A stretch of 56,781 nucleotides of DNA, taken from Thelocarpon superellum (Eukaryota). The translations under genes and the position numbers were made by a program. The DNA is taken from positions 1 through 56,781 of the forward strand of contig JAPEUG010000071.1 of NCBI GenBank assembly GCA_026025795.1, given 5' to 3'. A model generated the notes under the pieces. That model had not been told where the DNA came from and ran no database searches. It saw only the letters and a list, made by a program, of their open reading frames with translations. This document shows, piece after piece, positions 12,089-56,757 of the stretch; position 1 is the first letter of the stretch; each line of letters opens with the position of its first letter.

Positions 12089-12812
12089 GACAGACTCCAA
12101 CAGGCTAGGTTGGCTGATACACGCCAAACTCCACGCTTCTGCTTCTACCCCAGTAGACTATTGGCAGATCATCTTATCGTGCACCAAGTAACAGCCACGC
12201 CAGACGTTATTCCTTGGACGACTGTGGCGACTGTGGCTTACCACCGTGATTGGTTAGAGGGCATGGCGGCTTGGCGGCTTGGCGTGAATGCTTATGTAAG
12301 GAAAGCTGCGCCACACGGGCGTAAAACATTGTGGGGAAGTGGGTGAGACGTGCATGGCACGACCCCTCGTTTCAACTGTACACTGCCCTTCCAGCCAGAC
12401 CTCGATTCCTTCCAGCTCCCTTCCACGATGCAGTGGGCAAAGGATGTTCGTGGCAAAAGCACGCGGGGCATCATGCCAAACTCCCTCGCCGGGTGACTGA
12501 AGAATCCGCTCCAGCACTTGGATCGTGGGGATCAATCTGCGCCATGACGACCGCTGAAGGATGATTCCACCGGAACTAAGCAGAGTCGATCCAGGTCGCC
12601 ATCTCAGAGTGCAACTACAAACCCCTGACATGCATAGTACGGTCAAACCAGGAGACTCCTCAGACGCCGTCGCACCATGGACATGTATGTCATCAGATGG
12701 ATGTATGCAGGAGGCTGTCGTAATGGTAGACGACTGGGAGGCAGGAGGGGACTTCTGTGCTGAGCCTGACTGAACGTTCACAGGATCGCAGGCAACGAGG
12801 ATGAAGGGTCAA

Positions 12813-32985: not shown

Positions 32986-35900
32986 ATGCCCAAACGGGTT
33001 ACACCACAACCGCATCCCCCGACTGATCCGCCGTGGCACTCCCAATCTCGCGCCTCCAACTCCTCCCGGACGAGTGACTCCGGCTCTGGAGGTAAGTGAC
33101 GTTCCGCGGCCCGGCATGTCTGTCCAGCCTGACCCCCGCCACAGCGGAAGGACCGGCGAGGAAGAGGTTCCAGAGGAGCACCATCGCCAGCGAGGCCCTC
33201 GCCCGTCGACCAAGCGTCACCAGCGCCGCTACCAGGGCTGGAAACGACACACGGACCGCCGTGAATGCCCGGCGCCTGTCCATCAGGGACCCGAAGGCCC
33301 CGTTGGGTCCCCGCCCGGCCGATTTCTCCCCCTCCAAATCGTGAGCCTTCCTCCCAGCCTGATCTATGGCTATCCGTCACCGCTGACCTGATCCTTAGGG
33401 ACAATCCAGGACTACCCGTACCGGTCTTGCGGCCCGCCACCTTGTCAAGGTCGGCGGAGCCGGCACGGGGATCCGCCACGAACAATATACCCTCCCTCTG
33501 TGACCCGACGCCCGGCCCCAACGGGACCGTGGACAATTCCGAGAACGCCATGGCTACCACCGACTTCTTACCTTCCGTGAGCTTTGATGACCTGCACACC
33601 AGCATCGCCTCTAATGAGCTTCGGCTGAGCCAATTTCCCGCGCCTGGGGGCGGAGGAGCCATACTGGCAAGCGAAGGTGGTGAAGGGACTCGCGATGCCG
33701 GGCGAGATCGGCCTGCCGCCGCGGCTGTGACCGCGACCCCTGCGCCCACACGCCTGGCTCGGAGCGACTCGCTGCAGTACCGTCAGCGTATGACAGCCCG
33801 ACCGAACCACCAGCCCGCGTCGGCAACGTCGGCCGTCGAGTCCACGTCGAACCTATCGCTGGCGGGGAGGGCACGACGACAAAGCCACTTCATTCCCAGT
33901 GCCAGCACTGGTGCCACCATCAGCCATCCGCGAAAGTCGATCGGCCCGGGCTTCTTTGATGGCCCGCCACCCAGCAGGGCCGTGCACGCTGGACGTCCGA
34001 CGCTGACAACCGTGGGAGCGCGAAGTCTATCGGACGACAAGTCTGCTGCCCGGCCTGCGGGGATGTCGCGCATCATCCTCAACGCAGATCTCACCGTGCC
34101 TAGTAGCAGCCGGAGTATCAAGGCCCAGTCCCTGCTGCCCCCCTCTGACTCTGGGTGCTCGACGGCATCGTCCATCACCTTTGATGGTGCCCGGTCTTCC
34201 ATGATCGGCGGCGTGCGGACGCCGGCGAAATCGCCTGGGCGCCGACCCAACTCGCCGCCATCGGCCTCAAAGCGCCTGTCCGTCATGCCCAACCACGCCA
34301 CCGGGCTGGGAGCCCGCACCATCAGCCCGACGGACGCCCGGCGGATGAAGCGCATGTCTATGATGCAGGATCCGCCGCCGCTGCCCACTACCCCGTCCAC
34401 GCCGACGACGCCACTGCCTGATCTGCTGCTGGGGCGGCGATCGGCCGCCCAGTCGCCATCGATGATCCCCCGGAAGAGCGTCACCCCTTCGTCCTCGCGC
34501 ACCACCCCGGATCCGCATCGAAAATCTTACAGCTCCGGTCTCTCAAATTCCTCCAACACCAGCAACACCTCGGTCCGTACATCCACGGGATCCCTCCCAC
34601 AGCGCTTGAGCCAGAACCTGTCCACCTCACGCCTGCCGACGGTGAAGCCCAAGAGCGGTCACTCATCGGCCGGTGCCGACGATGACGAAGAGGTGCCCCC
34701 GGTGCCTGCGATCCCTAAAGCGTATGAGTCGCCAAAAGACAGTGCCAACCGCTCACCATCAATGCCGCGAAAGGCCAGTCTGCCCCTGAGCCTGACCGCC
34801 TTCCCGAGCAGCGCCACGGCGTCAACTCCCACCGCGACCACGCCCGTGACGCCCGTCGAGGAGTCGACGCGGGTAGAGCGCGCCGCACGACCTGCGCCCG
34901 CCGCGGCGCCCGCCGCGGCACCCGCCGCTGTTTCGATGTCCGAGACAGAGGGACGGGCTGGGGTCACACCGACCATGCCGCGGAGGACAGGGCCGCCGTC
35001 GCGACTGCCGCCGCTGAACCTCCAGCCACTGAGTACCCCGACCGTGGCAAAGGTGGCTGCCCTGAACGACCCCCAAGCCGCCACGAGCGAGAAGGGCCGA
35101 TGGACGCCTCCGCCGCCGCGGCCGCACGCCAAGACGCCCAGCAGCCCGCTGACTGCTTCTAAAGCCACCTTCTCACAGAGTCACCGCGACGACGTCTTTC
35201 CCGCCTACCGCACCGCCCGCGCCGAGTCGGCCATGGTCCAGGCTGCCGGAGACAGTCCGCCCTCGGGCTTGGCCGACAACGATGATCTGCGCTCGGGTCG
35301 GCACACCATGACTCCCTACGCCTCTTCCTCCCTGCCCAAGGCGAGTTTGGATCTTGGTCACTCGACCACCACCGATCGCGTCGAGCGTGACCGCGATGAG
35401 CTGAGCACGGCCGAGCTGATCGCCGAGGCTCGCGTCGCCCGCCTTGGCGGTCTCCGCGGTCAAGCATCTAGCATCACGTTGCATGAGTCATACGCTCGCC
35501 CGGCTAGTCCGCGTGAAGCCGAGCCGCCGTCGCCGGCGACATCGCTGCGACAGAAGCTCGGTCTCGGCTTCCGGCGGAACTCGACGAAGAGCCTACTGGC
35601 AGGTCCGGAGCAGGATTCGCAACAGACGCCGCAGTCGGCCAAGCACGACGAGATGCCACCGCCGCGCTTCCCGGCCTCGGCTACGTGGTCCGACGCCAAC
35701 ACGAGCGCCACTGTGCCGAACCTGTCCGTCAAGACGACGCACCTCCAATCGCGTCGCCGCCAGAGCTCCATCTCAAACCTCACCAACGGCCACTCGCGCA
35801 TCCTCAGCGATAGCTGGAGCAATCGCGCCAACATCCGAGCCTCTAAGGACGATGCTACTCCAGTATCGGCCGTCTCAGCCGCGTCGGACCCTTCGCCCAC

Positions 35901-37755
35901 GGGGCCGCCGATGACGAATAAGACGTCGTCCATCCTTTCCCCCGTGCATCGCATGCTCAACAGCAAGTCTTCAGCTACACCGGTACGACCGGCCAAGGAT
36001 CCTGGCGTCGACGCCGACGATGCTGCGGCCGAGGAGGAGATGCGTAAGCTCGCGATGCGACGCAAGAACTTCGAATCCGCTGCCAAGGAGTTGGACGAGC
36101 TGCGGCGGCGTGCCGTGCCCAAGGAGCGCACGAGCCCATCGTACGCGCTGCGCAACAACATCCTCAACATCTTCGAGCGCGGCGAGATTATCGACTACAA
36201 GGACATCTACTTCTGTGGACATGCCGGCGCCAAGAAGCACGTGGGCGATTTGGCGACGCCGGGCACGCAACCAGCCAACTTTGGCTACGACGACGATCGC
36301 GGCGACTATAGCATTGTGAACGGCGACCATCTGGCCTACCGCTACGAGATCATCGACGTGCTTGGCAAGGGCAGCTTCGGCCAGGTTGTGCGCTGCATCG
36401 ATCACAAGACTGGCGGCCTGGTGGCGGTCAAGATCATCCGGAACAAGAAGCGCTTCCACCAGCAGGCTCTGGTGGAGGTAGGCATCTTGCAGAAGTTGCG
36501 CGAATGGGTGAGTGGCTCCGGTGCCTCGATGCAGGCGTCTGCAGTAGGTCAGGGGGCAAGACTGACGTGGGTGGCGTGGCGATAGGACCCGCAGAATCGG
36601 CACAGCATGGTCAGCTTCACGCAAAGCTTCTACTTCCGCGGCCATCTCTGCATCTGTACCGAGCTGTTAGGGATGAATCTGTACGAGTTCATCAAGTCCA
36701 ACAACTTCCAGGGCTTCTCCCTCAAGCTCATCCGGCGCTTCACGAAGCAGCTCCTGAGCAGCCTGGTCCTCCTCAAGGGCCATCGCGTCATCCACTGCGA
36801 TCTCAAGCCCGAGAACGTGTTGCTGGCGCACCCGGCACACTCGGAGATCAAGGTCATCGATTTCGGCTCGAGCTGTTTTGAGAACGACAAGGTGTACACG
36901 TACATCCAGTCACGCTTCTACCGCTCGCCCGAGGTCATCTTGGGGATGAGCTACGGTCTGCCCATCGACATGTGGAGTCTTGGCTGCATCCTGGCCGAGC
37001 TCCACACGGGCTATCCTATCTTCCCCGGCGAGAATGAGCAGGAGCAGCTGGCGTGCATCATGGAGATCTTCGGCCCGCCGGAGAAGCACTTGATCGAGCG
37101 CAGCTCGCGCAAAAAGCTCTTCTTCGACTCGCTCGGAAAACCCCGTCTCACCGTTTCGTCCAAGGGTCGTCGTCGGCGGCCCAGCTCCAAGACACTGCAG
37201 CAGGCGCTGAAGTGTGACGACGACGCCTTCCTTGACTTCTTGACTCGCTGTCTGCGATGGGACCCGGAGCGTCGGCTCAAGCCCGAGGAAGCGGTGCAGC
37301 ACGAATTCATCACGGGTGTGCGGAAGACGGGGCGTAGCCGGGCCCAGCAGGTCATGGCCTCGACGCCGATCAAGCGCTTCAACAGCATCGCCACTTCTTC
37401 CACGTCGTCGTCTGCAGCTCGCCCGCTGCCTGATCCGCCTGCGACGAGCTTCAAGTTCAGCTCGTCAATCCGGAATCGTGATGTGCCGAATGGCTCGCCC
37501 TCCAAGGTGGCGCCGCCATCATCAGCGCGACGGCTCTCGACGGTCAATGGTACATCGTCGACCACGGCAGCTCTGAAACGATCGTCGGCGGGCATTACGA
37601 TGTCGTCCAATCTACCGCGCGTCACGCCTCGTGGCCCGACTATCAAGGGGGAGATGGCGACGGCGGCCGCGACGGCGGCCACGAATGCAGTAAGTACTTC
37701 TGGCTTCAGTCTGTGACTGTTACGACAGCTGACGTCTCGGTGGCAGCGACGATGA
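32986..37755 (+). CDS. pom1: DYRK-family dual-specificity kinase, Pom1-type, with a long disordered N-terminus; 5 exons
   Basis: DH-box NFGYDDDRGDY, LGKGSFGQV, HCDLKPEN, DFGSSC, VYTYIQSRFYRSPE. Introns at 33092-33143, 33341-33398, ~36508-36585 and 37690-37746 join in frame. Start codon is inferred. Confidence 0.88.
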
Positions 37756-39071: not shown

Positions 39072-40501
39072 TCAACGACTGGAAGTCTGCACCGACACAT
39101 CCTGCTTGACATGCACGACGCCTTCCTCTCCACGTCCGTGCCCACGTTCATGGGCACCAGCTCCGCGCTCGAGATCGCGTTGCGCATGGCGTGACTCGGA
39201 GGGAAGGCGGTGGCCCATGGACTTGCAAAAGGAGAAGGGCCGCTTCACTGAGAACGGAAGCGGCGCTTTCTCCCACTTCTCCTTCGTATTCATATCGTTG
39301 TCCAGAGTCATGGTAGGGGATTCGGCGATGGAGGAGGATAGAGTCGGAGAGACCTTGGTGGCCATATCAGGGTACACATGTCCCGTCGTCAGAGTTGACG
39401 TCTCTTGGGAAGAAGTGCTGCTTGACGTGATCAGATCATCCGTCTTGGAGCGGAAAGCCGTCGTGCCCGTTGAATAGCTGTTCGTGAAGTTCTTGTTGCC
39501 TCCGTGAGGACCGTGGTGCTTGTTTGATGGATCCGTGCTGCCGCTGCCGCCGGTCGGGCGGCTGTAGGGATGGGACGCCGGTGGTCCGTTGACGGCTGCC
39601 GACGCCCAGAGAGAGGACAGCGGGAGGGAAATGGCGACGAGGGTCAGGACGTTGGTCGAGAGCACTGGCACGGTCACCACGTATTGAAGGATGGCGAAGA
39701 TGGCTGCGATGGGTCAGCGGGTGAAGAAACACGAACCAGATCTGGAATTATACCCGGAACGACCATAGTCTGACATCCCATGATGAAGATGATCTGCATC
39801 GGCGCATACTGCTTCATGCCCAGCTTCTTGCGTTCGTACAAGGCGAAGCCCAGCTTGATGGCGAACAGGGCGCAGAAAAAGCAGATGCTGATGGTCGCGG
39901 TGATGTTCGCGGCGCTGGCCAGCCACTGCCATGCGAGGAAGTTCTCGGCCTCGAGGATCTTCTCGCTATTGATGATGACCAGGGCGAAGCGGAAGCCAAT
40001 AGCTAGAAGCGCGACCACCGCCGAAACAGCCGTGATGATGTACCGCTGGGATTTGAGCAGCGTGGCGCACACGACACGTGCCTGCAGGACCAGGGACACC
40101 TCGATGGTCATCAGGAGAAGTAACGTGAGGACGTCAGCGGTGATGGAGGTGGCGTAGTCTGTGGCGGGGACGCGGGAGTAGTCCTCGGCGAAGAAGGCGT
40201 AGGTCTCGTTGAAGCCGCTAGTAAAGTAGAGGCATTGCAGCAGCGAACGGATGAAGTTGACCGACAGCGAGAGGGCATTCAGGTAGAAGATGGGCGATTG
40301 GCGCTTCTCGGCCCGGGTCAGGAGCATCAGCACCACCAGGAGGATCAGCGATGCCCCCAGCTGGCTACCATAGTCGATGCAAGTCTGCACGTTGTACAGC
40401 GTGAAGGCATCGAGGTCCGGTATGGTGATATTGAAGGGCGTGCCGTCCGCCAGGAGGAGGGTGACGTTCTGCGAGAACGGATCGAACGTCGGAGAGGCCA
40501 T
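39072..40501 (-). CDS. STE2: Alpha-factor pheromone receptor (Ste2/PreB, class D GPCR); 2 exons (intron 39704-39753)
   Basis: FDPFSQNVT, IDYGSQLGA, SPIFYLN, IEVSLVLQARVV, KLGFALYERKKLGMKQY, MQIIFIMGCQTMVVP, LVAISLPLSSLWA; seven hydrophobic helices. Confidence 0.95.
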
Positions 40502-41559
40502 GCTCGACGACGTGTCGGACAGATGCTGAGGTGACGAAGCTTGTTAGAGGCTGATAGACGGGCTTGAGGAGACTTGCAGGCCAACGAGGAGATGATGAGG
40601 AAAGATTGATGGACCTCGTGAAGAAGCAGAGAGACTGCAGAAGTCTTGATGCAGTGCGTTATGTGGGAAGAAGAGAAGGAGAGAGCAGGGCAGAGCAACG
40701 CAGGATGAAGTATTTGAGCTCCATCAACAATGGAGCTCTGGGATCGACATGGCCCAGCCCCGGCCGTGGTTGACCGCGACCCGCATTCATCGTCGTCGCT
40801 GCGAGACTCGGCAGCAGGAGAAGAATAGGATGAACGTCGACACTTGGAGCGAATCGTCCGGAAACACAATACCTACGAGGCTTGGAGAGATTGCGAGACA
40901 GATGGTGGACAATACGAAGAGAGAGACATCGGCGCTGCCATTTCCCTTCACTGTATCTTTGCCGCCCTCCATATTCACGGCGAGACCGGGTATCGACCCG
41001 CCTGGCAGCATCATCTCCTCTGTGAAGCCGTGCCATTCATCCGCATTGGAACATCATCACAGTCAACGCCGACCTCACTTCGAGACCTGTCATGATGGCT
41101 GGAGAGCCTTAGTATTGTTCTCTCCGCCGCTACTGACCCTGTCTTGCATCAGCGCCTGCGACTACCCGACGCGCAGGATGAGGTTGTCTTTGGGCGCGAG
41201 TCGGATCACGGCAATGCATCCGGAGACCTAGGTCTACTGAATGAGTAAGGTCATACTCGAGCAGCTGACAACACGATGCAGCGGCTCACTCTTGTGAGTG
41301 AGATTGGTGCAAGCGATCAGCCCACGGAGGGAAATTTGATGTCTCGTGGAGTTGAGATTTTTCCCGTGACTTGGCGTTGGACGATACACGTGACATCGTG
41401 ATCGAACTACCACCGACGCGTCTTCTGCAGAGCCTCAGGTGCCACTTTGGTATATCAGGAATACTCGCACGGCATCTGACCCGTCACTCGGCTCACTCAT
41501 ACGCAGCCCCTGGGGAAACCCTTCATGATCCAAACCCAAAGCAACCCACGGTGGACGTC

Positions 41560-43623
41560 ATGACATCTGACTGCCTACATCTGCGAGCAGATGGCGATCA
41601 CTCGTATGTTTCCGAATCATTACGGACTCCATTTCCCCTCGCGCTTCGGAAGTCTGGAAAACCATCGACGTACTATTTTTTGAAAGAGCTGAGTTCGGGA
41701 CGTCTCCATGTCCGACAAGACCAGGATGCGACCGCGTGGCATTCTGTCGCCGCCCTCCGTAACTCGCCTTTCCCTGTTGTCCTTGTGGCTAAGTTCTCAC
41801 CTTGTCCAGATCTGCTTCCGAAAAACGTCGTTCTGGAAGCTTTGGAACCCAAGGCAGTCCGGGTCTCGTATGTTCTCGTCAGCAATGGAGAGGATGGATC
41901 AGATGGATCTGGCACTGCGACGCAAGCACCAATCCTCGGGTCATCATATCTTCTCCATGCTCGCGGGCAAGTCGAATCATTTACCATTGGCTCCACCAGA
42001 TTCATCCTCGAGTCAGATCCTTCCATTGATGTTCAAGTCACCTCTTCGCCTCCTCTCACCACTGGAGGCGGCACCGTCATGGCCGTCGCTGACCGCGGAT
42101 CAAGTCTGACATTCAGTGCACAAGATGATCAGCACGGCCACGACGACCCGGGCAAGGAAGAACTCGTCGTGAATTCCCACGCAGAGACGGCGGTGGGTGC
42201 GTCGGGCTCAGAAGTCGTGCTCCAGCCTCAGAAAGTCCAAGCAACCCGAAATTTGACCCCTGGAGAGTCCGGCGCCGGAGAAGACCGAGTGCTAGATACG
42301 CCAGCGATGGAGAATCGATACAAGAATGCCCGCTCGGCGAGCGATCACATCCAAGGGATCACCAAAGAAGCCCGGAACGACACCACAAAGCCCCCACCAA
42401 ACTCCGTTCGTAGAGGCCGACCTCTGGGTCGAACACGAAAGACGGAGAACGACAAGCATGAGAAGACGGTAGCGGTACTCAACGACGGCGGCGCTGTGAT
42501 CGCACTACCGCCTGATGCGGCGTCCGTCCCAGATACTGCCCATGACACTGATGCTAGGAGCTCGACCGAGCAACCCGCCGCAGAAGACGTCGAGCCACCA
42601 GAGCCGCATCTCACCCCCACCACGAAGAGCATCTCCAAAAGAAAGCTCCCCATACCTGCAGACACCGCAGCGAGACCACTGACGGCAAAGCGACGGCGGA
42701 ATGGAGGCCACGAGCTGGTCACGACCGCGGTAAGACCCACCATCGCATCGTCCATGTCCCCACCAGGCACCGACTACACCGATTCCTCCATCAAAGACAC
42801 GCAGTGGACGTTTCAGGCCGGATCCTCCGTCCCATCGCAGAGCTCAACACAAACACCGCGAAAGGGCCCGCTAGCCGTCTCCAAAGACAAGAGAACTTCT
42901 GCACAGTCTCCGAGTCTAGGCGTGGTCTTCAGCAACACCGCAGCCCCGAATCAGCCCAAGATCAAAGCCTTCCTCAAAGCCCAGCAAATCGCCGTGGTCC
43001 ACTCCGTACTAAGCGACGAAGCAACCATGCTGTGCATCGGGGCCGGCGAGCTCCGACGAACGAGCAAGCTCACGATGAGCGTGGCGCTGGGCAAAACGAT
43101 CGTAACAGACGAGTGGCTCAAGGATAGTGCCAAAGCAGGCTCAATCCTCGACGCGACGCCGTATCTTCCGCGAGATCCCAAGCAAGAGGAGGCGTGGAAC
43201 TTCCGCCTCGCAGACGCTGTTGAACGCGGTCGACGTGGCGAGGGCATACGACCTCTTTCGAACTGGGCCGTTGTCATTACCCCGCGACTGAAAGCAGATC
43301 TGGGCAAGAGCAGCGAACTGATGGACCTCGTCTCCTTTGCGGGCGCTGCGTCCATAACGCATGATGTCCCGTCTGATCCGCCAGAAGAAGTGCCGCGGAC
43401 GCTCCTCCTCGGATCGGCACGCGACGAGGGCGAAGTTGACATTGTGCGAGCATTAGCAGCGGGCTGGGCCGTATATAGCACGGACATCGTGTCGCTTAGT
43501 CTTTTGAGAGGCGCTTTGCAGACGGGCGGAACGGAGTTTCGGATTCAGTATGGGGCGAAGAAGGCACCGGAGTCCGTCAATGGTGGGAGATCGCGGGATA
43601 GAAGGAGGAAGGCAGGGTCATGA
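41560..43623 (+). CDS. Tandem-BRCT protein with an MDC1/Mdb1-like C-terminus
   Basis: Single long ORF. The C-terminal VVFSN...LRRTSKLTMSVALGKTIVTDEWLKDSAKAG...PRDPKQEEAWNFRLADAVERGR resembles the MDC1-type BRCT1 plus linker. ATG 41560 is assumed as start. Confidence 0.78.
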   Translation: MTSDCLHLRADGDHSYVSESLRTPFPLALRKSGKPSTYYFLKELSSGRLHVRQDQDATAWHSVAALRNSPFPVVLVAKFSPCPDLLPKNVVLEALEPKAVRVSYVLVSNGEDGSDGSGTATQAPILGSSYLLHARGQVESFTIGSTRFILESDPSIDVQVTSSPPLTTGGGTVMAVADRGSSLTFSAQDDQHGHDDPGKEELVVNSHAETAVGASGSEVVLQPQKVQATRNLTPGESGAGEDRVLDTPAMENRYKNARSASDHIQGITKEARNDTTKPPPNSVRRGRPLGRTRKTENDKHEKTVAVLNDGGAVIALPPDAASVPDTAHDTDARSSTEQPAAEDVEPPEPHLTPTTKSISKRKLPIPADTAARPLTAKRRRNGGHELVTTAVRPTIASSMSPPGTDYTDSSIKDTQWTFQAGSSVPSQSSTQTPRKGPLAVSKDKRTSAQSPSLGVVFSNTAAPNQPKIKAFLKAQQIAVVHSVLSDEATMLCIGAGELRRTSKLTMSVALGKTIVTDEWLKDSAKAGSILDATPYLPRDPKQEEAWNFRLADAVERGRRGEGIRPLSNWAVVITPRLKADLGKSSELMDLVSFAGAASITHDVPSDPPEEVPRTLLLGSARDEGEVDIVRALAAGWAVYSTDIVSLSLLRGALQTGGTEFRIQYGAKKAPESVNGGRSRDRRRKAGS

Positions 43624-43808: not shown

Positions 43809-45018
43809 CTATGTAGGAGACGACGTCTCGGCGACCGTGTTCGACGCCTCAGCAGCCGGTTCCATCTTCTTAGCCTCTACCTCGGTCACTGGTTTGGTCG
43901 CGGCCTTGGGCACCAGGTTGCGCAGGGAGATATCGTACACGACGTCCTCGGTCTTCTTGACGTGGTACTTGATGCTGTCGCTGCGGCGCCTCAGCGCGTC
44001 GTTCTTGAGATTCAGGATCTGGAAGCCCGCGTGCAGGTCTTTGACGAAGTGGCTGATCTGGAGCGGCCGGTGGTAATCTCCTAGGGTGACAGAGTTGACT
44101 GCCAGACGGGCCTGGCATGGTGTTAATCGAGACGCGAAGAGCCTGAAGGGGGGGAGTAGAGGGAGAGACGTGCCAGCTCTTCAATCAGGTTGATCAGCGC
44201 GTGGAGATACTCTTCGATCGTGAGGTGGAAGGTATCGCGGTTCTTGACGTTGACGGGAACTGGGGACCTTCTGCGTGAGTAGTGAGGCACCACGACTACA
44301 TGGGACGGGCCGTACCGTCCAGGATCGCTCCCACTTCCTCGATCGTTAACAATCGGCCTTGCGGCGGCGATGCTTCCAGCCGGAACCCCCCGAGCCACCC
44401 GCAGAGGATCACGGAATAGGCCTGGCGCTTTCAGCTCAATCGTCAGCCATTGGAAACAGACGCAAAGACATACCACGATCTGCATGTCCCGGGTCCACAT
44501 GACATTGTATCTGCCACGCCGGTCAGCAAGGGTGCAACCGTTGAAGCTGTGGGAGAGCCAGACTTGTAGTATGGGTGTTTGGACGCAATTTTCGAGAGCT
44601 GTGCAATGGTCTGCACCTCATCTTGGATCGCTTTCTCCGCGATACTGATGGCGGGTAACACTGGCACGCGTCGAATGCGGTGAGCTGGTGACTGACAGCG
44701 CATGGGGGGGGGAATGTGCACATTCGGCTTCAGGAGTTGCATGAGCTCGAGACAGGATCGATTGAATCATGCGACCTTTACTTGCGTTAGAGAAGAAAGA
44801 CAAAGACAGACAGACGTGGACCAGTCCGATCTCACCTTGGCGGTCTAATGTTTGGAGAATCCCTCGAATCTCCTGACCACCACCAAGGGTCAACCCTGCT
44901 TGATGAGGCGCACGGTGGGGAGCACTACCTCTCGAACTTGAGCATCTTCATCGATCTTGGTTTGAAGGTGCTCGAAGATGGCCGGGTCCACAACGGTGCT
45001 CGAGCTGGACTCTGCCAT
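43809..45018 (-). CDS. TSN1: Translin (C3PO subunit); 8 exons
   Basis: IFEHLQTKIDEDAQVRE|EIRGI, FHLTIEEYLHALINLIEEL|ARLAVNSVTLGDY, GFQILNLKNDALRRRSDSIKYHVKKTEDVVYDISLRNL. Confidence 0.93.
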
Positions 45019-46552: not shown

Positions 46553-47351
46553 GTCGGTCGGGGAGCTTGCTGTGCAGACCCGCAGACCCGTCAAAACATA
46601 CCCAATTATGACCCCGCAACGGCATACCTTATACCCATCTCTCTTATACCCATCTCTCTTCACAGCAAAAGATCTCTGATTTCTAGCCCACTGACTGGAG
46701 CAATCAAGGTCTTTTGCAGTGGATACACCTTCACCGGGATAAATGCATAGTGACCTGGCTCGCATGTGACATTTGCCGGATGTGTGCACGGGAGGGGAGA
46801 TCGGGACACATCCTGGCAGGACGGTCATCAAGCTCAAAGGGTCTGCGCAGCCAGCATGCCCAGAGACGGCGACTCAGCGCTCCCAAAGCAGGGAGAGCCA
46901 TATTCCGATGCGAAGTAGGTGACAAGCCGCCCAGAGCATCTGAATCTGTGAGAAGGAAGGCGGTGAACTGGCGGATAGGAACAGCCTCCGCGGTAGCAAA
47001 GTGACGGCCCAACTCGGTTCCACCGAGGCTACTCGCCGGGCGAAGCGACAGCCGGTGGTGATGTTACTCGTTTCTTGGCTCGCCTTTCTCAAGGCCGACG
47101 GTATTCACCGTTCCTAAAGCCCCACATACTTGCAGATTTTAGTAAACGCCGAAATCTCCGCGGACTCCTCCTCTTCTTTGCTCGCCCTTGCTTCCCGTTG
47201 CCCCACTTTCGGATTCTTGCAGATCAACATCTTGCTACATGGCGTCCCGCACACCGCAAAAGCTCGCTCCGAGGCGCTGCTCTTAAGCAGAGTCGATCCC
47301 TGCAACTCGATCGATCAGCCGCAGTTGCTCTCGCCAGTCTCATCGTCGAAA

Positions 47352-50300
47352 ATGCCCCACGCGACGTCCTTCTCAGACGATGAGCTTGAATACATCATCA
47401 ATCATGTCCTCCTCCCTCCTAGGTTACCTCATGAAGACGACGCGGAGGACTGGAAGAAGCAGGATGCTCTCTTACGACTGGTGCATGAGCGTGCACAAGC
47501 ATTCGTCCACCAGTGTTCGCCAAGCCAGCAGACCGCCTGGCAACCGGCCTTGAGAATGCTCGCTCGATCCATCAGTATCAACCAGCAGGGGGTGATCAGC
47601 GAACCCGCGCTCTCTGGTGCTCTCCGGGACATGGCACCACATGGTCAGTGATGTGATGAATGTGATCGTAACAGTTTCTGACCAGCGTCTAGATGCTATC
47701 ATGCTCACCATCAAGGCGCAAAATGCCGGCCTCATCTTCACCAAGGTGCCGGAAGCTTCCGTCGTTGTGGACGCCTTTGAAATTGCCGCGACCACTGAGG
47801 CCGTCGTTGGGACTACCGGGAGGCTGATCCGCACGTTTCCCGGAAGCAGTGTGAGGTTCTCTTCAGACCTCCTCAGAGACCCGCTCTTTCTCGCCCAGGT
47901 GACTGCGAGATTGTGCCAACTGGCCGTGGAAGTCGTTGCTAGCACTATGCCGACCACGAGAAAGGCCGGCGAGACCCTCGTTGAAGAGCGCGATACCGCC
48001 GCACCTTTCTTGGTGACAGAATGTCTCATGAACGTGTTTGCCGCACTCGGTGGCGCCTGTGAGAGCGAGGCCATCCAAAAACACACGCGAGATGACGTGG
48101 TCTATCACCACTCCAAGCTTCCCTGGCGACGTTCGCCATCGTGGCTAGTCCTCCGCGTCGCCCTTCAGATGACTCTATCCCGCGCCTTTCCCCACGACCC
48201 GTGCCACGCCCAGTACAAAAGCTTCATGCTGTTCCTCCTCTCCGACCTCTGCAGCATGGCCACGTTGGCCCATCTACCTGTCGATACCCAGAAGCTGCTC
48301 GCCGCCAAGGTCGCCGGTCGCGTATGGAAGCTTGGTTCGCTCGCGGAAAAGTTCGTTCTCGAGGCGAGTCTGGCAGCCACGCAAGCGACCCGTTGCGCCC
48401 TGGAGTCCGCTTGGGTCGAAGTCCGCGGCGCTGAGATGACCCGTCTCCCGACTCTCCAAACAACAGTTGTGGATAAGGACATGGCCATCGTCTTGAGCCG
48501 CGGGCGAGATCGTTTGGTGCAGGCGATGTTGCCCCCAGCGACATCACCCACGCAGTCCTCATTTCGGCCGCAACATCTCGTTCGCTCTGGCAAGGATGAC
48601 CTAGAATTACCTCAGCTGACCCAGGAACGGGGACCAGATCGCTTTCTCGCATTGGCAGACGTTGAGCTCTGGGTCTCGGGAAACCTCGCCGGTTGGCTCG
48701 ACGGGAGACTTCAGTTCGGAACTGATGTGGATGAGAGTTGCCGATGTCTCGCGGCCCTCCTCCGCGCATACATCACCACGGCCTTGGAGGACTATCAAAA
48801 CAACCCCCGAGAGCGGTCCATGATGCTACTTGTCACCCTGGAGATGTGGGTGGCACTAGACAAGCTCTGTCTGCGCTCCTTACCCCTACTTGCAGAATTC
48901 TCCCCAATAATCCCCCCGACGCTTCTGCAGCCTCTTCTCCTGCCGAGAAAGGATCACCTGGCCCGGCTTGCCGCGGTAGAGCAACATCTCCTACATCGAC
49001 AAAGAGATGTCGCTGGGCCTAGCTCAAGTCTCTTGACAGAGGACGGGCACTCCTCATTTGCGTTCAAGCTTTACGATTCTTCGCTCCCTCATCAGCGGCT
49101 CCGGATGGAAGTTGTTACCGAGGCCACACGGAAGAGAGCCGCGAAGAAGACCGAGTGGGAATCAAAGTCCTCCCAATATCGATCTCTTGTCGAGAGCGCC
49201 CAGTTTCTAGAGCACGACTATGAGATAGACGAGGACGGGATCAGTCAGCATCGGAATTGCACTCGGTGCACCAAGGAAAAGGAAGCCCGAAATATCAGCA
49301 TAAGTTACGATGAATGGCCCCTCCCCGAAAATGAGGCATCTATCCGACGAGTCATCCTGGAACTGTCTGTGCCCTTACCGGTGCTCGTCTGGCGAGAGTC
49401 GACTTGGATGATCCTTCAGGACCTTGGTCGGGCACGCGTCGTTTCGGCAGAGAGCGTGGAAGACATACTATTCGGCTACAGTCTCTTACGCCAACATCAA
49501 AAGATCGACCCCCCACGCATCACACTTGCATCCAGGACCAAGTCATTTCTGCGTGCACATTATCAACGAAAGCGTTTTCCAGTGACGCTTCAAGCGGTAT
49601 GTGTGAAAAATGCCCTGCAACTGCACCTATTCGACAGTTCTCGCTCGGCGTGGATCGCTCGCCAGGATGAGAAGCCCTCACTGAGGCACCTGTGCACCCT
49701 GAATATCCCGTTTGGCCCGTATTTGCAGCTCGGATATGCCGCTAGGGCCTGCGCCCATTCAACGAGTCAAGTCATCGCCGAGCAGAGCGAATGCTCCCCA
49801 AAGCTGACCGTCCTTGAGTATCTGGCCTTTGGGTCTCTCCGGGCTGGCGAGCGTCTCCAATGGCGGAACATCCTCCGCGAGCTGGGATTGTTCAATCTCT
49901 CATTCAACGAGGAGGCCGTCATGTCGCTCATCTTGCAAGCTATTTGGCAAGCCGGATCCCCCGCGCCGGACACAATTTATCGAACAGCTCATGAAGTCTT
50001 TAAGGAGTCCGCTTTCAGCACGCGCTTGCTGGAGATGCTCTGGCGGCGTTTGTCGATGGTTGAGGCTAATTGGAGGGAGCAGAACGCCATGTTCATACTC
50101 GTTGCCATCGCTTTACGTGCGCTTTCGCTTGCACCGACGAGCGACATCGCGGCCAAGGTCATTGCATTTCTTCGATCCGCTCGGGTGATCCTGGGACAAT
50201 GGTCGCGAGATCTGACGGCAATCCAGCACGGGTGTACGGACGAAGATGACAGCAAAAGGAACATGGACATGCTGTCATATGCCGCCTGCATCTGTCGTAT

Positions 50301-53300
50301 GACGTACGACGTCGACTCGCAGCACGTTCGTTCCTTGCTGGCCGATGCTGCCGACGTAGCCACATTCATCGAGTGCTCCGTCCTAGTTCACGATAATACC
50401 GCAGGACGGCAAGACGAGCTTCCTCCGTACCTACGACAGGCAGTGGAACGCAATCAAAAGATATCGCACGCTTCGGAAGACTGGCTTCGACATTTGATCC
50501 TTCAGGATCAAACCGGCATCAACTGTGCGATGGCCAGCATCTGGCAGGACGTCACGATGAGAGACCAGTGGCAAGTTCTTCCCTCACCAAACGAGCGGTG
50601 GGTGATAAATACGACCGCGGATTCGCCTCTCCGACGTCCGCAGTCGGTCTGCTACAACCTCCTGAGTGGCAGTCTCCTCGTGGATGGAAATCCGCTCGGG
50701 AGACTGCCATCGCAATATGTCGAGGATCCGATCTATCGCCGCGTTTTTGGCTCGGTAGGTTATTTTCATCTGTTTACTAGGCACCGCATTAACACATCTA
50801 AGCGCATCCTTCACGTCTTTGCATCGGACATGCCTGGGATGTCGTATATGACTGCACGCGATATCCATGGACATCAGGTGAGTACTCCAAGGCGTCAGCA
50901 CATCATGCCACCCTGACCGGGTTTATAGCTTCATCTGGGCGTCTGGGGCCAACAGCTCCGGATCAAGGCACGGCGTGGGAGCCAGGTACTTGAGTTGATC
51001 CCATTGGAATTCTTTCAAGACGACCTCCCTGAACATTTTGCTGTCAACTTCGTCCACTGGATCAACGTGGAGACAGGCGAAATTGAGTTTCGGCCGCTCT
51101 CGACCCTGTGGCACACGTCCCCAGAAAATTGGCGACTGCACTTTTCGCCCACAGCCTCATCGCGCATGACAAGAGGCCAAGATCAGATGATCGATCATCG
51201 CAGCAACGTAGCCTCTCAGATAATGACCATCCTGAACGCGATAGAGGACAGAACACACATGCACATCACCTGGAAAACTGGGGAAGGTATCGAGGCAGAG
51301 CTTCCACGCTTCAACCTGCGCTTCTTCGTTGATCAGACTGGCCATCTACGGTCTCGAGAGCTCGCGGCTGTGGTCGACCAGGATCAATCGATCGGGACGC
51401 TCTGTGGCCTCTGCAGTCGACTGGTCCTCCGAGACGTGACCTTTCACGAGCATCTGAGTGAACGAAGCGTGCTGGTCCCCCATGGCGTGGTCCACGTCAC
51501 CAAAAGAGGGGAACACGTTCGCGTCCGAGTCAATCCGGGAGACTCTTCGCAGATTCGATACTTCCGTTACAAGCTCGACCTCCACCTTCAGAAGCTTCGT
51601 GGGCCGCCGGGTCGCCTCGGCGAGTTGTACAAGGCCTACTTGCATGCTGTTACGAGCTATGTCCTGGCGGATCCTTTCACGGGGCGGACCGGAACTGAAG
51701 AAGCCCTGATCAGTCTCCGCAATGAGTCTCTACGCTTGTCAACACCCCTCGAAACGGCGGAGACGCGTGTCTTGCATGCTATTGCGGCCCTGTCTCCCAA
51801 ACGCACCTTCTACCCAGTACGTCTACGGAGAATGGAGGTCGTCTTTTGGGATGCAAACCTCTCAGAGCTCGCGCAGCATGAAGAGTTCTCCCTAGCAGCC
51901 CGAGAGATCGAGACCCACGCAGCACGTTTTGCTGCCCTCTACGACGGAAACGCGCCCGAGCAGTCCTCAGGAAGTGGTACGCATGAACACCTTGTCAAGC
52001 GCGCGCGGCTGCGAAATGCTTCATTTAGAAGTTATGAGTCTGGCGGCAACGCGAAACAAGACCGTCTCGACGCTACATACCAGGCCCGAGACAGGGGTCA
52101 GACCAGCGGGCGGGCACGCCGCGCTTTCGAGATAGCATCGCTCATTCGAGAGTGGCCCTCAACAATTCATGTCACACATGCACTCGACACGAGGCTTTGT
52201 CGGTGGGGAACAATCGCAGGCTATGGACAGACGTTCACACAAAGCATATTAACCGAGATACTGGAGCTGTCCATGCCTAACGCTTGGGGAGCGTTGTACA
52301 ATCTCTGTCGATTCTCGACGCGGGAATCGGATACGTACCAACTTATGTTTCTCTTCGGCTTTGTGGCATTTGGGGACGCCGGGTCGCTGCCTGATATCCA
52401 CGTCCTTCTGGCCTTCGCCTTTGGCCGCTTTGAGGATCTTGATCCTCCACCCTACCCTGCTTATGCGCTGGAGGCTGGAGCCCATCCGGTACGGCGGCAG
52501 CTTTCTCGTACAATCCGGAACGCTTGTGTCCCCTTTGAGCGCCGTCGACATGAAAATCACGACCAGCGACAGCGGCGAAGATCAGCCTTTGAACGGGATC
52601 AAGCCGCTCAAGTCGAGAGTTTCTGTCAAAATGCTCTGGACAAGTGGCCATGCGAGGCTCTCAACCTACCCGACCGCTCCGAATTCCCCCTGATCAAGGT
52701 AAAAACTGCGCATCGGCAGGTCGAGGACTTGCTCGCTAGTTGGTTTCACAACAAGCTCTTCCTGGAACATATCAATAGAGTTCAGGAACGTTTGGAACAG
52801 ATGACCATCGCCAACATTGTCACGTTTTGGCCGGAAGTGCCACTGGTCGACTACATCCCGGAATTGCCTTCCCCACGATCGCCTCTGGTCAACCTCTCTG
52901 GCCTCTTGTCGTCGAAATCTCCCCCGCCGTTGGAGAAGTTTATCAGTGCGCTGGTAGCACCCCGTCAGCAAGGCGTGGTCAGCGATGCCAACCGCTACTC
53001 TGAACTTCGGGACATGATCTTGACGCTTCGCAGCAGTCACTGCCCACTTCGCCAAGAGTACGGAAAAGACCTCCAAGAGAGCTTGCAGGCTTTAGAGGCA
53101 GTTCCCAAAGTCGAGAACCCTGTTGGATTTCCCTTCGATATGACGACCCTCTTGACCCATCGACTCGATATCGAAACCCAATTGGAGAAGATGATGTCGC
53201 GGCTAAAGCTCAATTTGGGACCCACCTCACAAATAGATAAGGTGATCGAGAGCGCTGACATCTGGCCTCGCTTGACGCCACAGTCACTCTTGGCGATGTT

Positions 53301-56300
53301 GTCTGCTACGAACTCAGACCAGATCAGCAAGCAGTGGAGGGAATATCTCGTGGTGCTGGGGGAGGTGATCACTCTGCTGCAGCGGGTCAACCGGCTCATC
53401 CGCCTCCAGGGCTTGGGCAACGTCGTTGGCTCCTATCGTGAATCGGAGAATGGAGGCCGCGAGGGATGGAGCGCCGTCGATTATCCGGAGTGGCTCCTGA
53501 TGGAGATCGAGAACGACTTCATGATTCGACGTGTCCAAGCCACCGTCGCGCTCGCGATGATTCGACCCGAAGACGCCCGCAATTCGGTCTTGCAGCTCAA
53601 CATGGGCGAGGGGAAATCCTCGGTCATCATTCCCATGGTGGCCGTGGCTCTAGCCGATCGACGACGGCTCGTTCGTGTGATCGTGCTAAAGCCTCTCCTA
53701 CGGCAGACAGAGTATCTGCTCTCTCAACGCCTGGGTGGTCTGGTCAACCGACGCGTCTATCACACGCCCTTCTCCCGACAAACTCCTCTCGATCCGAGTC
53801 TCGTGGCTCACCTTCAAGAAATCTTTGAGGAATGCAAAGGTAATGGAGGTGTGTTGCTCGCGTTGCCAGAACATATCCTGTCGTTCCGTCTGATGGGCAG
53901 AGAGCGGCTCTCGTATGACCGGACGCTCGCAACACATCTCATGGAGACCGAAAAATGGCTCCAGAAACACGCGAGAGATGTCCTGGACGAGAGCGATGAG
54001 ATTTTGGCCACCCACTTCCAGCTCGTCTACACGACAGGTCTCCAACAGCCCATGGACGGACAACCGGACCGTTGGACGGTCTGCCAAAAGATGTTGTCGT
54101 TGGTGAGGAAGCATGCAGGAGACGTCCAAGCACAAGATCCCGGAGACCTGGAAGTAGGCGGCAGAGAGCATGCCTTTCCCACCCTGCGATTCTGCTCAGA
54201 CCGTGCGGGTCGCGAGCTCGTGTCACGTCTAGTGAGAGACTTAACCCACGGCGCAGGCTCGGGAATCTCCTATGGTCACTGTCCCTCGCAAGTGCAAGAG
54301 GCGGTAGTCCGATTCATCTGCCGCCGTTCGCTGGAGGCGGACGATGCCGATCAAGTGATGCAGTTCTTCGGCAACACAAACTATCAACACATCATCCTGC
54401 TCCTCCGAGGCCTTATTGCGCACGGCATTCTACTCTTCGTGCTGCAGAAGAAGCGGTGGCTGGTCGATTACGGACTGGACCCGAAGCGCTCCCTGATGGC
54501 GGTCCCCTATCGTGCCAAAGGCGTTCCGTCGTTGAATTCGGAATTCGGCCACCCCGACGTCGCTCTCCTCCTGACTTGTCTGAGCTACTACTACACGGGA
54601 CTGACATTCGATCAATTGGGCCAGTGCTTCGATCTCCTCTTCAAGGAAACGGATCCCTCGGACGAATACGATCGCTGGTATGCTGGCTCACCTTCCCTCT
54701 CGGAGAAGCTCCGAGGGCTGCACGCGATCAACCTCGAGGACTCACATCTTCGCACTCAAGACCTGTTCCCGCATCTGCAGTTCAACATGGTGGTCATCGA
54801 CTTTTATCTGAACAAGGTCGTCTTTCCTCGTGAAGGCAAGGAATTTCCCACCAAGCTGTCCGCCTCCGGCTGGGATATCCCGGCGCACGAGAGTGAGCAG
54901 ATCACCACAGGATTTAGCGGCACCAACGACAACCGATTCTTGCTACCGCTGTCGATCCGGCAGGCTGACCTCCCAGAACTTCGACATACCAACGCCATGG
55001 TTCTCAATCTGCTGCTGCAGCCGGAGAATCGGCTGTACCTCTACGCCCGTGATCAGGAGGGCCAGCGCCTCTCGGTAGAAGGGTTGCTGAGACTGATCGC
55101 ACGGCAAGAGCCAAGCATCCAGGTCCTCTTGGATGTCGGCGCTCAAGTGCTAGAGATGAAGAACCGCGAAGTGGCCGAAGCATGGCTGCGCTGTGTCCCG
55201 ACCGCCGAGGCTGCCGTCTTCTTCGATGAAGGTGATGAGGTCATGGTTCTGAGTCGTCGCGGGCTCTATGAACGTCTGGTCGTCTCCCCCTTCCACCATC
55301 GTCTCGAAAATTGCCTCATCTATCTGGATGAGGTACATACCCGTGGCGTTGACCTCGACATCCCCGCCGGCGTGCGTGCCGCCGTTACGCTTGGCCCACG
55401 CCTGATCAAGGACCGACTGGTGCAAGCATGTCTGCGGATGCGGAAGATGGGATGCGGGCATTCTCTGGCCTTCTTTGGCCCGCCCGAGGTCCACCAGAGC
55501 ATCCGGGCCTTTGTCGAGAAAGACTCGACGGCCCAGCTGGATGCGGCAGACGTGGTGCGATGGAGTCTGGAACAGACGTGTAAGCTCACGAAGGATAACA
55601 AGTCCTTGTGGGTGATGCAAGGCTTCGAACACGATCAGCGTACGCGCGCGTGCCGTGCCTTAGCAGCCGGTAGCGCTAGTCTCGAGAGCGTGATGTCGGA
55701 TGATGGTCGCGTCCAGGCCTTTGGAGAACGAATCCAAGTGGCGGAGTCACATACCTTGGAGGAGATGTACGGTCCTCGTTCCGGCCCTTGCGCACCCTCC
55801 TCGAACGCGACGGAAAGTGACGCCGATGATGAGGGCGATGGCGACGTCCTGACCGAATTGCATCGGGTGTGGCATACCTTGGATCCAACAAGCGTCCGGG
55901 ATGGTGTCATGCACGAGGAGCAGGAGCGAGAAGTGGCGCATGAGATCGAGCGAGAGCGGCAAGTCCAGCGGCCGGGAAAGCTGGGCTTTCGAGCTTCACA
56001 TCTCCATCCGACGGTTAAGCATTTCGTCCAATATGGTACCTTCCCTCCCGGCAATATCCAGGACGCGGTTCGATCGGCCGCTCGAAGCCTCGATCACACC
56101 ATGGTGACTCGGCTTCTCGCGGATGCAGACATGTGGCCGCAGCTCTGGGCCACGGTCGACTTTGCCCAGACGGTGGATGCGAAGGGCGGGCATACTGACG
56201 AGTACTTGCGCCCGGTCAACTGGATCTTGACGAGCAGTGCAAGCCATGCGGCGGTCATCATCAGCCCTTACGAAGCGAACGAGCTGATTCCGACAATCAA

Positions 56301-56757
56301 GCGATCCAACAGGGTGCGACTGCACATGTATGCCGCCCGCACGACAGGCACCATGGTTTCGTTCGCCGACCTGTCCTTCTACACATTGACTGGAGACACC
56401 CCTCCTTACGAGGCCCCGCCGGCCATGATCCGAAATCTACACCTCTTCGGCGGCAGCCTCTACCTGGATGACTGGACGCAGTATTGCGCCGTGTGCCACC
56501 ACTTGGGTATCCTGATGAAGCGCGACACAATCGACGACGGCGTCCGCGTGTCGAGCGATGGCTTCGTCGATGAAGCCGGACGAGCCCTGCTCCGATGGCC
56601 GGTCAGCTCCCCCTTCAAGACAAGCCCGCTGCCCTTCCTCAAGGCGCTGCTCGGTCTTCGCATGAAGGGTGGTAGCTTTCCGCAGACGCACTTGGGGTCC
56701 TTGGTTGAGGGGAGGACGTTAGGAGCAGAATCATTTGAAGAGCGTCAAGATCGATAA
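47352..56757 (+). CDS. Giant (~3,080 aa) DUF6606 + DUF3638 + DUF3645-type protein with an SF2-like P-loop ATPase module; 4 exons (introns 47644-47692, 50755-50802, 50878-50928)
   Basis: N-terminal YIINHVLLPPRLP, AQNAGLIF, PWRRSPSWLVLRVALQ; LYKAYLHAVTSYVLADPFTGRTGTEEAL; QLNMGEGKSSVI; DVLDESDEIL; MAVPYRAKGVPSLNSEFGHPDV; GFSGTND; YLDEVHTRGVDL; HEEQEREVAHEIERERQ. Confidence 0.88.

Follow-up and report, generated by a model that had tools for sequence, protein, structure and literature searches.

A giant fungal DUF6606/DUF3638/DUF3645 protein with a predicted LegA15/AnkH-like head and a superfamily 2 motor nearest in predicted structure to SecA

A contig of 56,781 nucleotides from a metagenome-assembled genome (MAG) of Thelocarpon superellum (contig JAPEUG010000071.1 of assembly GCA_026025795.1, forward strand, hereafter the window) encodes on its + strand a giant protein of 3,085 residues. 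The gene runs from an ATG at 47352 to a stop codon at 56755-56757 and comprises four exons. Sequence comparison identifies the product as an intact and ordinary member of the catalogued DUF6606-DUF3638-DUF3645 family of ~3,000-residue eukaryotic proteins. We report that its C-terminal half carries a superfamily 2 (SF2) ATPase motor whose predicted structure is consistently closest to SecA, and that its N-terminal DUF6606 head is predicted to adopt the fold of the Legionella pneumophila effectors LegA15/AnkD and AnkH, with the putative catalytic His and Cys of that fold not conserved. We tentatively favour a joint explanation in which such a head and a conserved middle region serve an SF2 motor whose insertion acts as a clamp.

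Family membership and extent

Pfam profiles place the three domains in the order known for the family, with DUF6606 at the N-terminus (PF20255; E 1.5e-13 and 1.2e-62, 51.2 + 212.1 bits against a cut-off of 27, the domain being split by intron 1), followed by DUF3638 (PF12340; E 1.1e-95, 319.6 bits, cut-off 31) and DUF3645 (PF12359; E 1.2e-16, 60.1 bits, cut-off 25). The likeness extends over the full length, as the protein is colinear in an alignment with 125 homologs of 2,950-3,300 residues. Fungal giants such as those of Candelaria pacifica (P0002, 3,083 residues) and Macrophomina phaseolina (P0005, 3,073 residues) have the same three domains, order and length, with 56-59% identity in the motor. 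A model of the window gene with a 31-nt first intron aligned over its residues 6-3085 with residues 2-3082 of P0002 (45% identity), and likewise end to end with P0005 (41% identity). We observed no notable difference between the window protein and the fungal family members; only the deposited annotation is defective.

The family is large. An exhaustive search returned 4,924, 2,913 and 1,549 clusters (at 50% identity) at E<=1e-3, 1e-10 and 1e-30 respectively, and a word-indexed search found 2,260 proteins at E<=0.001 among 8,000 candidates scored, the named matches spanning many classes of Ascomycota as well as Agaricomycetes. A scan of prokaryote genomes gave one locus and no chlamydial or Legionella relative. 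The locus is a 43%-identical motor homolog on a 16.9-kb contig of a 'Deltaproteobacteria bacterium' MAG (NYXK01000198.1, 1859-16900; match 10001-12312), with the frame in pieces of 1,763, 661 and 269 residues, as from short introns; the contig probably comes from a fungus and was sorted into a bacterial bin, as opposed to carrying a bacterial homolog. In viral contigs scanned with the motor alignment, 32 pattern stretches matched and none was confirmed, and a DUF6606-only protein (P0264), searched against the ESM Atlas, found no usable match.

No study devoted to the family was found among the open-access papers searched, in which neither 'DUF6606' nor the Pfam/InterPro accessions of the family occur. 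A first-pass annotation of the window, made from the sequence, had called the function of the family not established. Papers that mention DUF3638/DUF3645 in passing concern, in the excerpts available, a gene unique to one A. oryzae strain; a family of 9 genes that ranks among the five most expanded in Hypomyces perniciosus; a domain present in a large gene family of microsporidia; and a predicted Plasmodiophora effector that is highly polymorphic. Such mentions hint at a variable, conflict-type biology and prove nothing. Comparative genomics has also described ATPase or helicase-related domains called 'SecA-like', found in toxins of bacteria and in effectors of Amoebophilus, which may or may not belong to the DUF3638 family.

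The SF2 motor and its insertion

The following features define the motor.

53389-55608, + strand: core of the SF2 ATPase (residues 1964-2703), made of two RecA-like lobes, the first covered by DUF3638 (Pfam, AlphaFold)
53599-53622, + strand: motif I (Walker A), NMGEGKSS, with GEGK at least 90% conserved
53986-54006, + strand: motif II (Walker B), DESDEIL, with D, E and D invariant in 22 motor fragments
54037-54858, + strand: lobe 1 insertion of ~275 residues, between motifs II and III (model secondary structure)
54478-54576, + strand: DUF3645 signature AVPYRAKGVP..SEFGHPDV..LTCLSYYY (Pfam match, fragment residues 364-396)
54496-54519, + strand: MAVPYRAK, part of the DUF3645 block
54538-54561, + strand: SEFGHPDV, part of the DUF3645 block
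54910-54924, + strand: motif III, GFSGT, invariant in 22 motor fragments
55336-55356, + strand: motif V, HTRGVDL, with H, R, G and D at least 90% conserved
55423-55452, + strand: motif VI, QACLRMRKMG, pattern Q.C.R.R..G at least 90% conserved (126 homologs)

Conservation was assessed in 126 full-length homologs and in 22 fragments covering the ATPase. Invariant or at least 90% conserved were the stretches QLNMGEGK..VI.P, DESDE.L, TTGFSGT.D, DVGAQ, LD..H.RG.D and TLG....KD...Q.C.R.R..G, and the DUF3645 block is conserved as AVP..AK..P....EF.HPD....LTCL.YYY.GL. By its sequence the motor is a complete, conserved SF2-type ATPase with catalytic residues intact. Much of the first-pass annotation is upheld by these results. 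It had assigned the protein to DUF6606/DUF3638/DUF3645, which the Pfam matches (E 1e-13 to 1e-95) place far beyond chance; it had located SF2 motifs I, II, III, V and VI, all of which were found with agreeing coordinates; it had put ~2,000 residues before the ATPase, which begins near residue 1964; and it had allowed that the motifs might not be conserved in homologs, where they are at least 90% conserved in both the full-length and the fragment sets.

The same annotation had described an insertion of ~300 residues, holding a DUF3645-like block, between motifs II and III. Such an insertion is present, with 308 residues from DESDEIL to GFSGT compared with 180 in E. coli SecA (DEVDSIL209-GMTGT389), where the preprotein-binding domain is inserted at the same site. 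In the predicted model, motif II is followed by a strand (fragment residues 212-216), and the insertion begins after this strand; it is mostly helical (helices at fragment residues 227-478) and ends before the strand with GFSGT. It is as conserved as the motor itself (mean majority frequency 0.52 vs 0.56 for the whole core), the DUF3645 motif being near-invariant in homologs. The one long stretch of low confidence, with a predicted local distance difference test (pLDDT) score <50 at fragment residues 356-386, covers the first part of the DUF3645 signature, as would be expected of a loop that takes on order only when it meets a ligand or a second domain.

Comparison of the motor with SecA and helicases

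The fold of residues 1964-2703 was predicted with AlphaFold from the 22-sequence alignment without templates (mean pLDDT 80.2, predicted template modelling score (pTM) 0.62). When the model was compared with the PDB by Foldseek, ranks 1-9 were all SecA (E 2e-7 to 9e-7; template modelling (TM) score ~0.32-0.38 normalised to the query), followed by MDA5, RIG-I, LGP2, Dicer-2 and INO80 (TM ~0.21-0.25). A wide search with VIA-align over 48,161 representative chains, independent of Foldseek, matched 196 PDB chains at Z>=8, with SF2 proteins making up nearly all of the rows listed, and gave the following scores.

Isolated SecA DEAD motor (3bxz_B): Z 16.7, 341 aligned residues, root-mean-square deviation (rmsd) 5.2
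SecA2: Z 16.1, 384 aligned residues
E. coli SecA: Z 15.6, 366 aligned residues
DDX20 lobe 1: Z 14.2
Hef: Z 13.9
Dicer-2: Z 13.8
DinG: Z 13.7

A second VIA-align comparison, among the best 986 chains from Foldseek, ranked SecA or SecA2 in rows 1-22 (Z 14.4-17.1), the first other protein being Dbp5 at Z 14.3. SecA is therefore consistently the nearest structural match of the predicted motor, with SecA/SecA2 chains (6itc_A, 3bxz_B, 4uaq) matching the RecA lobes at Z up to 17.1. The comparison with SecA versus DEAD-box and RIG-I proteins that the first-pass annotation had proposed thus placed SecA first, both by Foldseek rank and by VIA-align score (17.1 vs 14.3).

The motifs of E. coli SecA (GEGKT105, DEVDSIL209, GMTGT389, GRGTD508 and QLRGRSGR570) occur in the same order as those of the window protein, the common pattern being GEGK[ST], DE.D..IL, G.[ST]GT, RG.D and Q...R.(G)R. 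The earlier claim of a SecA-like motif layout is borne out for the order; the distance from motif II to motif III is 308 residues vs 180. Unlike SecA, the window protein is eukaryotic, apparently cytosolic and presumably without a SecY partner, and its motor lies within a chain of 3,085 residues. The SecA motor without its inserted domain (341 residues, Z 16.7) aligns about as well as full-length SecA (~365-385 residues), and hence a likeness of the insertion to the SecA substrate-binding domain is not shown; one row had 474 aligned residues, but at an rmsd of 10.6.

Sequence searches did not recover this relation. Against the PDB, phmmer with the motor found nothing and the motor profile gave chance-level rows only. 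SecA_DEAD (PF07517), Helicase_C and SecA_PP_bind matched 0 of 22 members at Pfam E<=10, a setting in which the HMMER filters drop many weak matches. Pfam DEAD (PF00270) matched 14 of 22 members at E<=10, with a best E of 0.002, below the cut-off. Using hhalign, a family profile retaining 102 of the 126 rows was compared with profiles of SecA (25 sequences) and of DEAD-box proteins (22 sequences). The SecA profile gave a probability of 1.9%, which is not significant, the best part being the motif II stretch (DESDEIL..FQLVYT vs DEVDSILIDEARTPLIIS), and E. coli SecA alone gave 0.14%. The DEAD-box profile gave 10.9%, also not significant, over a Q-motif-like R..Q, motif I and a PTRELA-like 'VLKP..L..Q'. 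Sequence is thus unable to decide between SecA and DEAD-box. The DEAD-box helicases Dbp5/DDX19 and eIF4A have the two-lobe fold in common with the motor (Z 13-14.3), together with the Q-motif-like R..Q and Ia- and Ib-like stretches, and differ in that the window protein reads DESD and GFSGT where they have DEAD and SAT, and carries the 275-residue insertion in lobe 1. Membership of the DEAD-box family is not supported, with the DEAD profile below its cut-off and no Helicase_C match. We place the motor in the DEAD/SecA corner of SF2, nearest to SecA in predicted structure, with a specific SecA ancestry unproven by sequence. The SecA-like reading of the first-pass annotation consequently holds in part: the best structural match and the site of the insertion agree with it, whereas a significant sequence link and a likeness between the insertion and the SecA domain were not obtained.

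Fold of the N-terminal head

47352-48435, + strand: N-terminal head, residues 1-345 (DUF6606, interrupted by intron 1; Pfam, AlphaFold, VIA-align)

The head was predicted by AlphaFold from residues 1-345 with 29 homologous N-terminal fragments, at high confidence (mean pLDDT 90.8, pTM 0.90). In the wide VIA-align search, AnkD (7ew8_A, Z 14.9, 251 aligned residues, rmsd 3.5) and AnkH (6mca_A, Z 14.0, 256 aligned) came first; the next row was at Z 8.8, and all further rows matched the C-terminal helices only. The second comparison put LegA15 with GNP first (7xql_A, Z 16.0, 262 aligned), followed by 7kj6_A at 15.8 and a drop to 8.1. Foldseek ranked the same LegA15/AnkD/AnkH entries first, but only at E 0.013-0.09. 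Overall, LegA15/AnkD (7xql, 7kj6, 7ew8) and AnkH (6mca) align with the head over 250-264 residues at rmsd 3.5-4.0 and Z 14-16. The DUF6606 head is accordingly predicted to have the fold of the cysteine-protease-like plus cap domains of these Legionella proteins. It differs from them in its low identity (7-10%), in having no ankyrin repeats and in forming the N-terminus of a giant ATPase. The first-pass annotation had noted a conserved N-terminal domain but had not recognised its fold. A PDB search with the head sequence profile returned chance-level rows only. XopD, Ulp1 and similar CE-clan proteases were not among the rows listed for the head, which shows neither presence nor absence of a relation.

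Among viral models in BFVD, the two best matches to the head were the N-terminal parts of a Hokovirus 'DUF3638 domain-containing protein' and a Harvfovirus 'ubiquitinyl hydrolase 1' (E 2.4e-3 and 3.7e-3, probability 0.99), with a Fadolivirus protein at rank 6. The N-termini of these giant-virus DUF3638 proteins are 8-10% identical to the head. The matches suggest one head-plus-motor architecture across the wider family, in which DUF6606, on the predicted structures, is the fungal form of a common head.

Catalytic positions of the head

The excerpts of PMC6712400 describe a cysteine-protease-like domain in AnkH as closest to XopD, a protease of clan CE, and its putative triad, H243/D258/C324, as part of the motifs rGHa, D/NRg and GNCSWANV; the His stands at the start of a strand, the Asp at the end of an antiparallel strand and the Cys before a helix. 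For LegA15 (alias AnkD), the available portions of PMC9757750 propose the triad H268/N290/C361, with Q353, Q356, D359 and C361 conserved. In the predicted head, a conserved AQNAG turn sets N108 where strand 109-116 begins, the antiparallel strand 120-127 finishes with E127, and E195-x-R-D-T-x-x-P precedes helix 203-216. The spacing N108-E127-E195-residue 200 (19/68/5) mirrors LegA15 H268-N290-Q356-C361 (22/66/5), and the aligned ranges (model residue 10 to chain residue 167) agree with an offset of ~160 between the two proteins. The residues found at these positions in the 126 homologs are as follows.

Residue 108: Asn in 121
Residue 127: Glu in 119
Residue 195: Glu in 115
Residue 198: Asp in 99
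Residue 199: Thr in 97, Ser in 18
Residue 200: Thr in 34, Ala in 29, Val in 15, Cys in 13, Ile in 9, Pro in 8

The window protein has Asn at residue 108 and Ala at residue 200. The 126 homologs have no conserved Cys within residues 196-206 and no conserved His within 104-114, and in a 30-sequence alignment of the head no Cys or His is invariant or reaches 90% conservation. We infer that the fungal clade is without the thiol-imidazole pair, which holds under mapping shifts of a few residues. As the His and Cys positions hold Asn and a variable residue, the head is unlikely to be a thiol protease or deubiquitinase in this clade. A polar shell is conserved (Q107, N108, E127, K188, E195, R197, D198, T199, K227, D231, W242, R243, R244 and S245), which suggests that a binding site is retained; because these polar residues are still conserved, a ligand-binding pocket is more likely to have been kept than a catalytic one.

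Gene model and deposited annotation

47352-56757, + strand: whole giant gene, with three GT..AG introns of 49, 48 and 51 nt
47352-47643, 47693-50754, 50803-50877 and 50929-56757, + strand: exons (homology and splice signals)

Three long + strand frames follow each other (47118-47651, 47596-50916 and 50929-56757) and are joined by the three introns, which are placed by homology and splice signals only; the first ATG of conserved sequence is at 47352. For intron 1 (47644-47692) the acceptor is that used in the deposited protein M1838_005579. A 31-nt variant of this intron, giving 3,091 residues, was dropped as too short in favour of the deposited acceptor.

The deposited protein (P0001, 'hypothetical protein M1838_005579') is 100% identical to the window protein over the motor, and the two also agree over residues 1-345 of the head. 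At 2,680 residues, it is without residues 492-788 and 1502-1603 of the 3,085-residue product, ~400 residues in all. Both stretches are open frame, are 30-38% and 23-44% identical, respectively, to four homologs, and have gaps of <=8% across 126 sequences. Since the dropped stretches are open and conserved in homologs, the deposited model treats real coding sequence as introns. By sequence comparison, the 2,680-residue model is wrong and the homology-supported product has 3,085 residues.

Middle and C-terminal regions and neighbouring genes

48436-53388, + strand: middle region of ~1,620 residues, conserved in homologs, with no Pfam, NCBIfam or PADLOC match, and holding both stretches absent from the deposited protein
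55609-56757, + strand: C-terminal region of ~380 residues up to the stop, matching no family and carrying the conserved acidic stretch E.ERE...E

Four pieces of the protein were scanned with PADLOC and NCBIfam and yielded nothing meaningful. A C-x2-C at residues 620/623 of the middle region (~49200-49220) is at least 90% conserved in the 126 homologs, and C798 and H864 are further conserved residues; these Cys and His residues may form a metal site.

The neighbours of the giant gene are ordinary, namely a protein kinase, an STE2 pheromone receptor, a BRCT protein and a translin.

33265-37716, + strand: large protein-kinase gene, with the kinase domain divided between neighbouring frames (Pkinase profile 1-56 and 59-263) and with ~1,000 residues before it that match nothing in Pfam at E<=0.001
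39072-40543, - strand: STE2-type alpha-factor pheromone receptor (Pfam STE2 E 3.9e-95), in two frames, presumably with an intron
41356-43623, + strand: BRCT-domain protein (Rtt107-like BRCT), between the receptor and the giant gene
44123-44617, - strand: translin-family gene, likewise between the receptor and the giant gene

Discussion

In the explanation that we tentatively prefer, the motor would bind and hydrolyse ATP between its RecA lobes and thereby move the conserved insertion, which with its invariant DUF3645 loop would act as a clamp on a polymer substrate, and the head and middle region would select or hold the target. The head would be a non-catalytic recognition domain of protease fold. 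There is a weak leaning towards a protein or protein conjugate as substrate, as for a remodelling or unfolding machine, over nucleic acid. Several observations weigh against this explanation. The lead of SecA over the DEAD-box, Hef and Dicer helicases is small (~2.5-3 Z units), and full-length SecA adds only ~25-45 aligned residues over the isolated motor. The sequence evidence, from both the Pfam DEAD matches and the hhalign probabilities, leans to generic DEAD-type helicases. The mapping of head residues comes from spacing, secondary structure and aligned ranges, without residue-level superposition; the predicted folds cover the motor and the head, with ~2,000 residues outside them; and the substrate class is a guess. 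The polypeptide translocase and innate-immunity roles raised in the first-pass annotation have no direct evidence.

A serious rival, although on balance an unlikely one, is an SF2 helicase or sensor that depends on RNA or DNA and is used in the manner of RIG-I, MDA5 or Dicer, with defence against mycoviruses or the quality control of RNA as examples. MDA5, RIG-I, LGP2 and Dicer-2 come directly after SecA in Foldseek (E 1e-6 to 1e-4) and reach Z 13-14 in VIA-align, the only sequence-level signal is that of Pfam DEAD, and the local hhalign match to DEAD-box proteins takes in the Q-motif, motif I and the PTRELA-like 'VLKPL..Q'. These points are countered by the lower TM-scores to MDA5/RIG-I (0.24 vs 0.36 for SecA), and Pfam detects neither Helicase_C nor a nucleic-acid-binding domain. 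In RIG-I-like and Dicer helicases a large helical insertion lies in lobe 2, whereas that of the window protein separates motif II from motif III in lobe 1.

A bolder version of a protein-directed machine, which we consider distinctly unlikely, would make the family an ancient eukaryotic cytosolic relative of SecA that threads or remodels polypeptides, perhaps ubiquitin-like conjugates, with DUF3645 as the clamp. The head would then be the eukaryotic counterpart of LegA15/AnkH, non-catalytic in fungi, and the Legionella and giant-virus copies would be captured or shared host pieces.

For the head, an improbable alternative is a nucleotide-binding or -hydrolysing regulatory module that gates the motor, in the manner of LegA15. 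The best structural match of the head is LegA15 with bound GNP, and it has conserved basic residues (K188, R197, K227, R243, R244, R252 and K273). LegA15 binds GDPNP and is reported in the excerpts of PMC9757750 to bind and hydrolyse GTP as an atypical GTPase that needs C361, the C361S change abolishing GTPase activity. The position equivalent to C361 is not conserved here, and R291 and K367 of the LegA15 pocket would, by spacing, fall on non-basic positions.

Many UniRef entries of the family carry the name 'ubiquitinyl hydrolase 1', and an active deubiquitinase or protease, as this automatic label has it, is still harder to accept. In its favour are the cysteine-protease-like fold of the head, the resemblance of the AnkH fold to clan-CE XopD in the excerpts of PMC6712400, and the presence of Cys at residue 200 in 13 of the 126 fungal homologs. 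The window protein itself has Ala200 and Asn108, its head is without a conserved Cys or His, it matches no protease or deubiquitinase Pfam family, and for AnkH itself the same excerpts report no protease activity detected in vitro. The first-pass annotation had seen no motif in support of a 'ubiquitin hydrolase' label and had suggested folding the N-terminal ~300 residues in search of a catalytic site; the folded head, in which the equivalent Cys and His are not conserved, is in line with its doubt. The VTD deubiquitinase family was considered and set aside, as the portions of PMC9741609 available link fungal VTDs to RBR ligases and contain no link to the DUF3638 family. Decay or mis-assembly of the giant gene, with loss of function, has in its favour the ~400 residues missing from the deposited model and has a negligible probability, being for practical purposes already refuted by an intact frame of 3,085 codons with three short introns, full-length alignment to homologs and a complete set of catalytic motifs.

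For the window, the practical outcome is that the gene model has been corrected. New for the fungal DUF6606 members are the predicted LegA15/AnkD-AnkH fold of the head and the absence of the catalytic set, which argue that the name 'ubiquitinyl hydrolase 1' given in databases is unsafe in this clade. The family is very large, and its proteins of ~3,000 residues are conserved over their whole length, yet no paper studying it was found among the open-access papers searched. Two testable handles are now available: the nearest solved relative of the predicted motor is a protein translocase and not a nucleic-acid helicase, and the head links the fungal proteins with effector domains of Legionella whose chemistry is disputed (protease-like or GTPase). 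If the family were indeed the ancient SecA-type machine outlined above, 'orphan' Legionella effector domains and the giant-virus copies would be pieces of a host machine imitated by pathogens.

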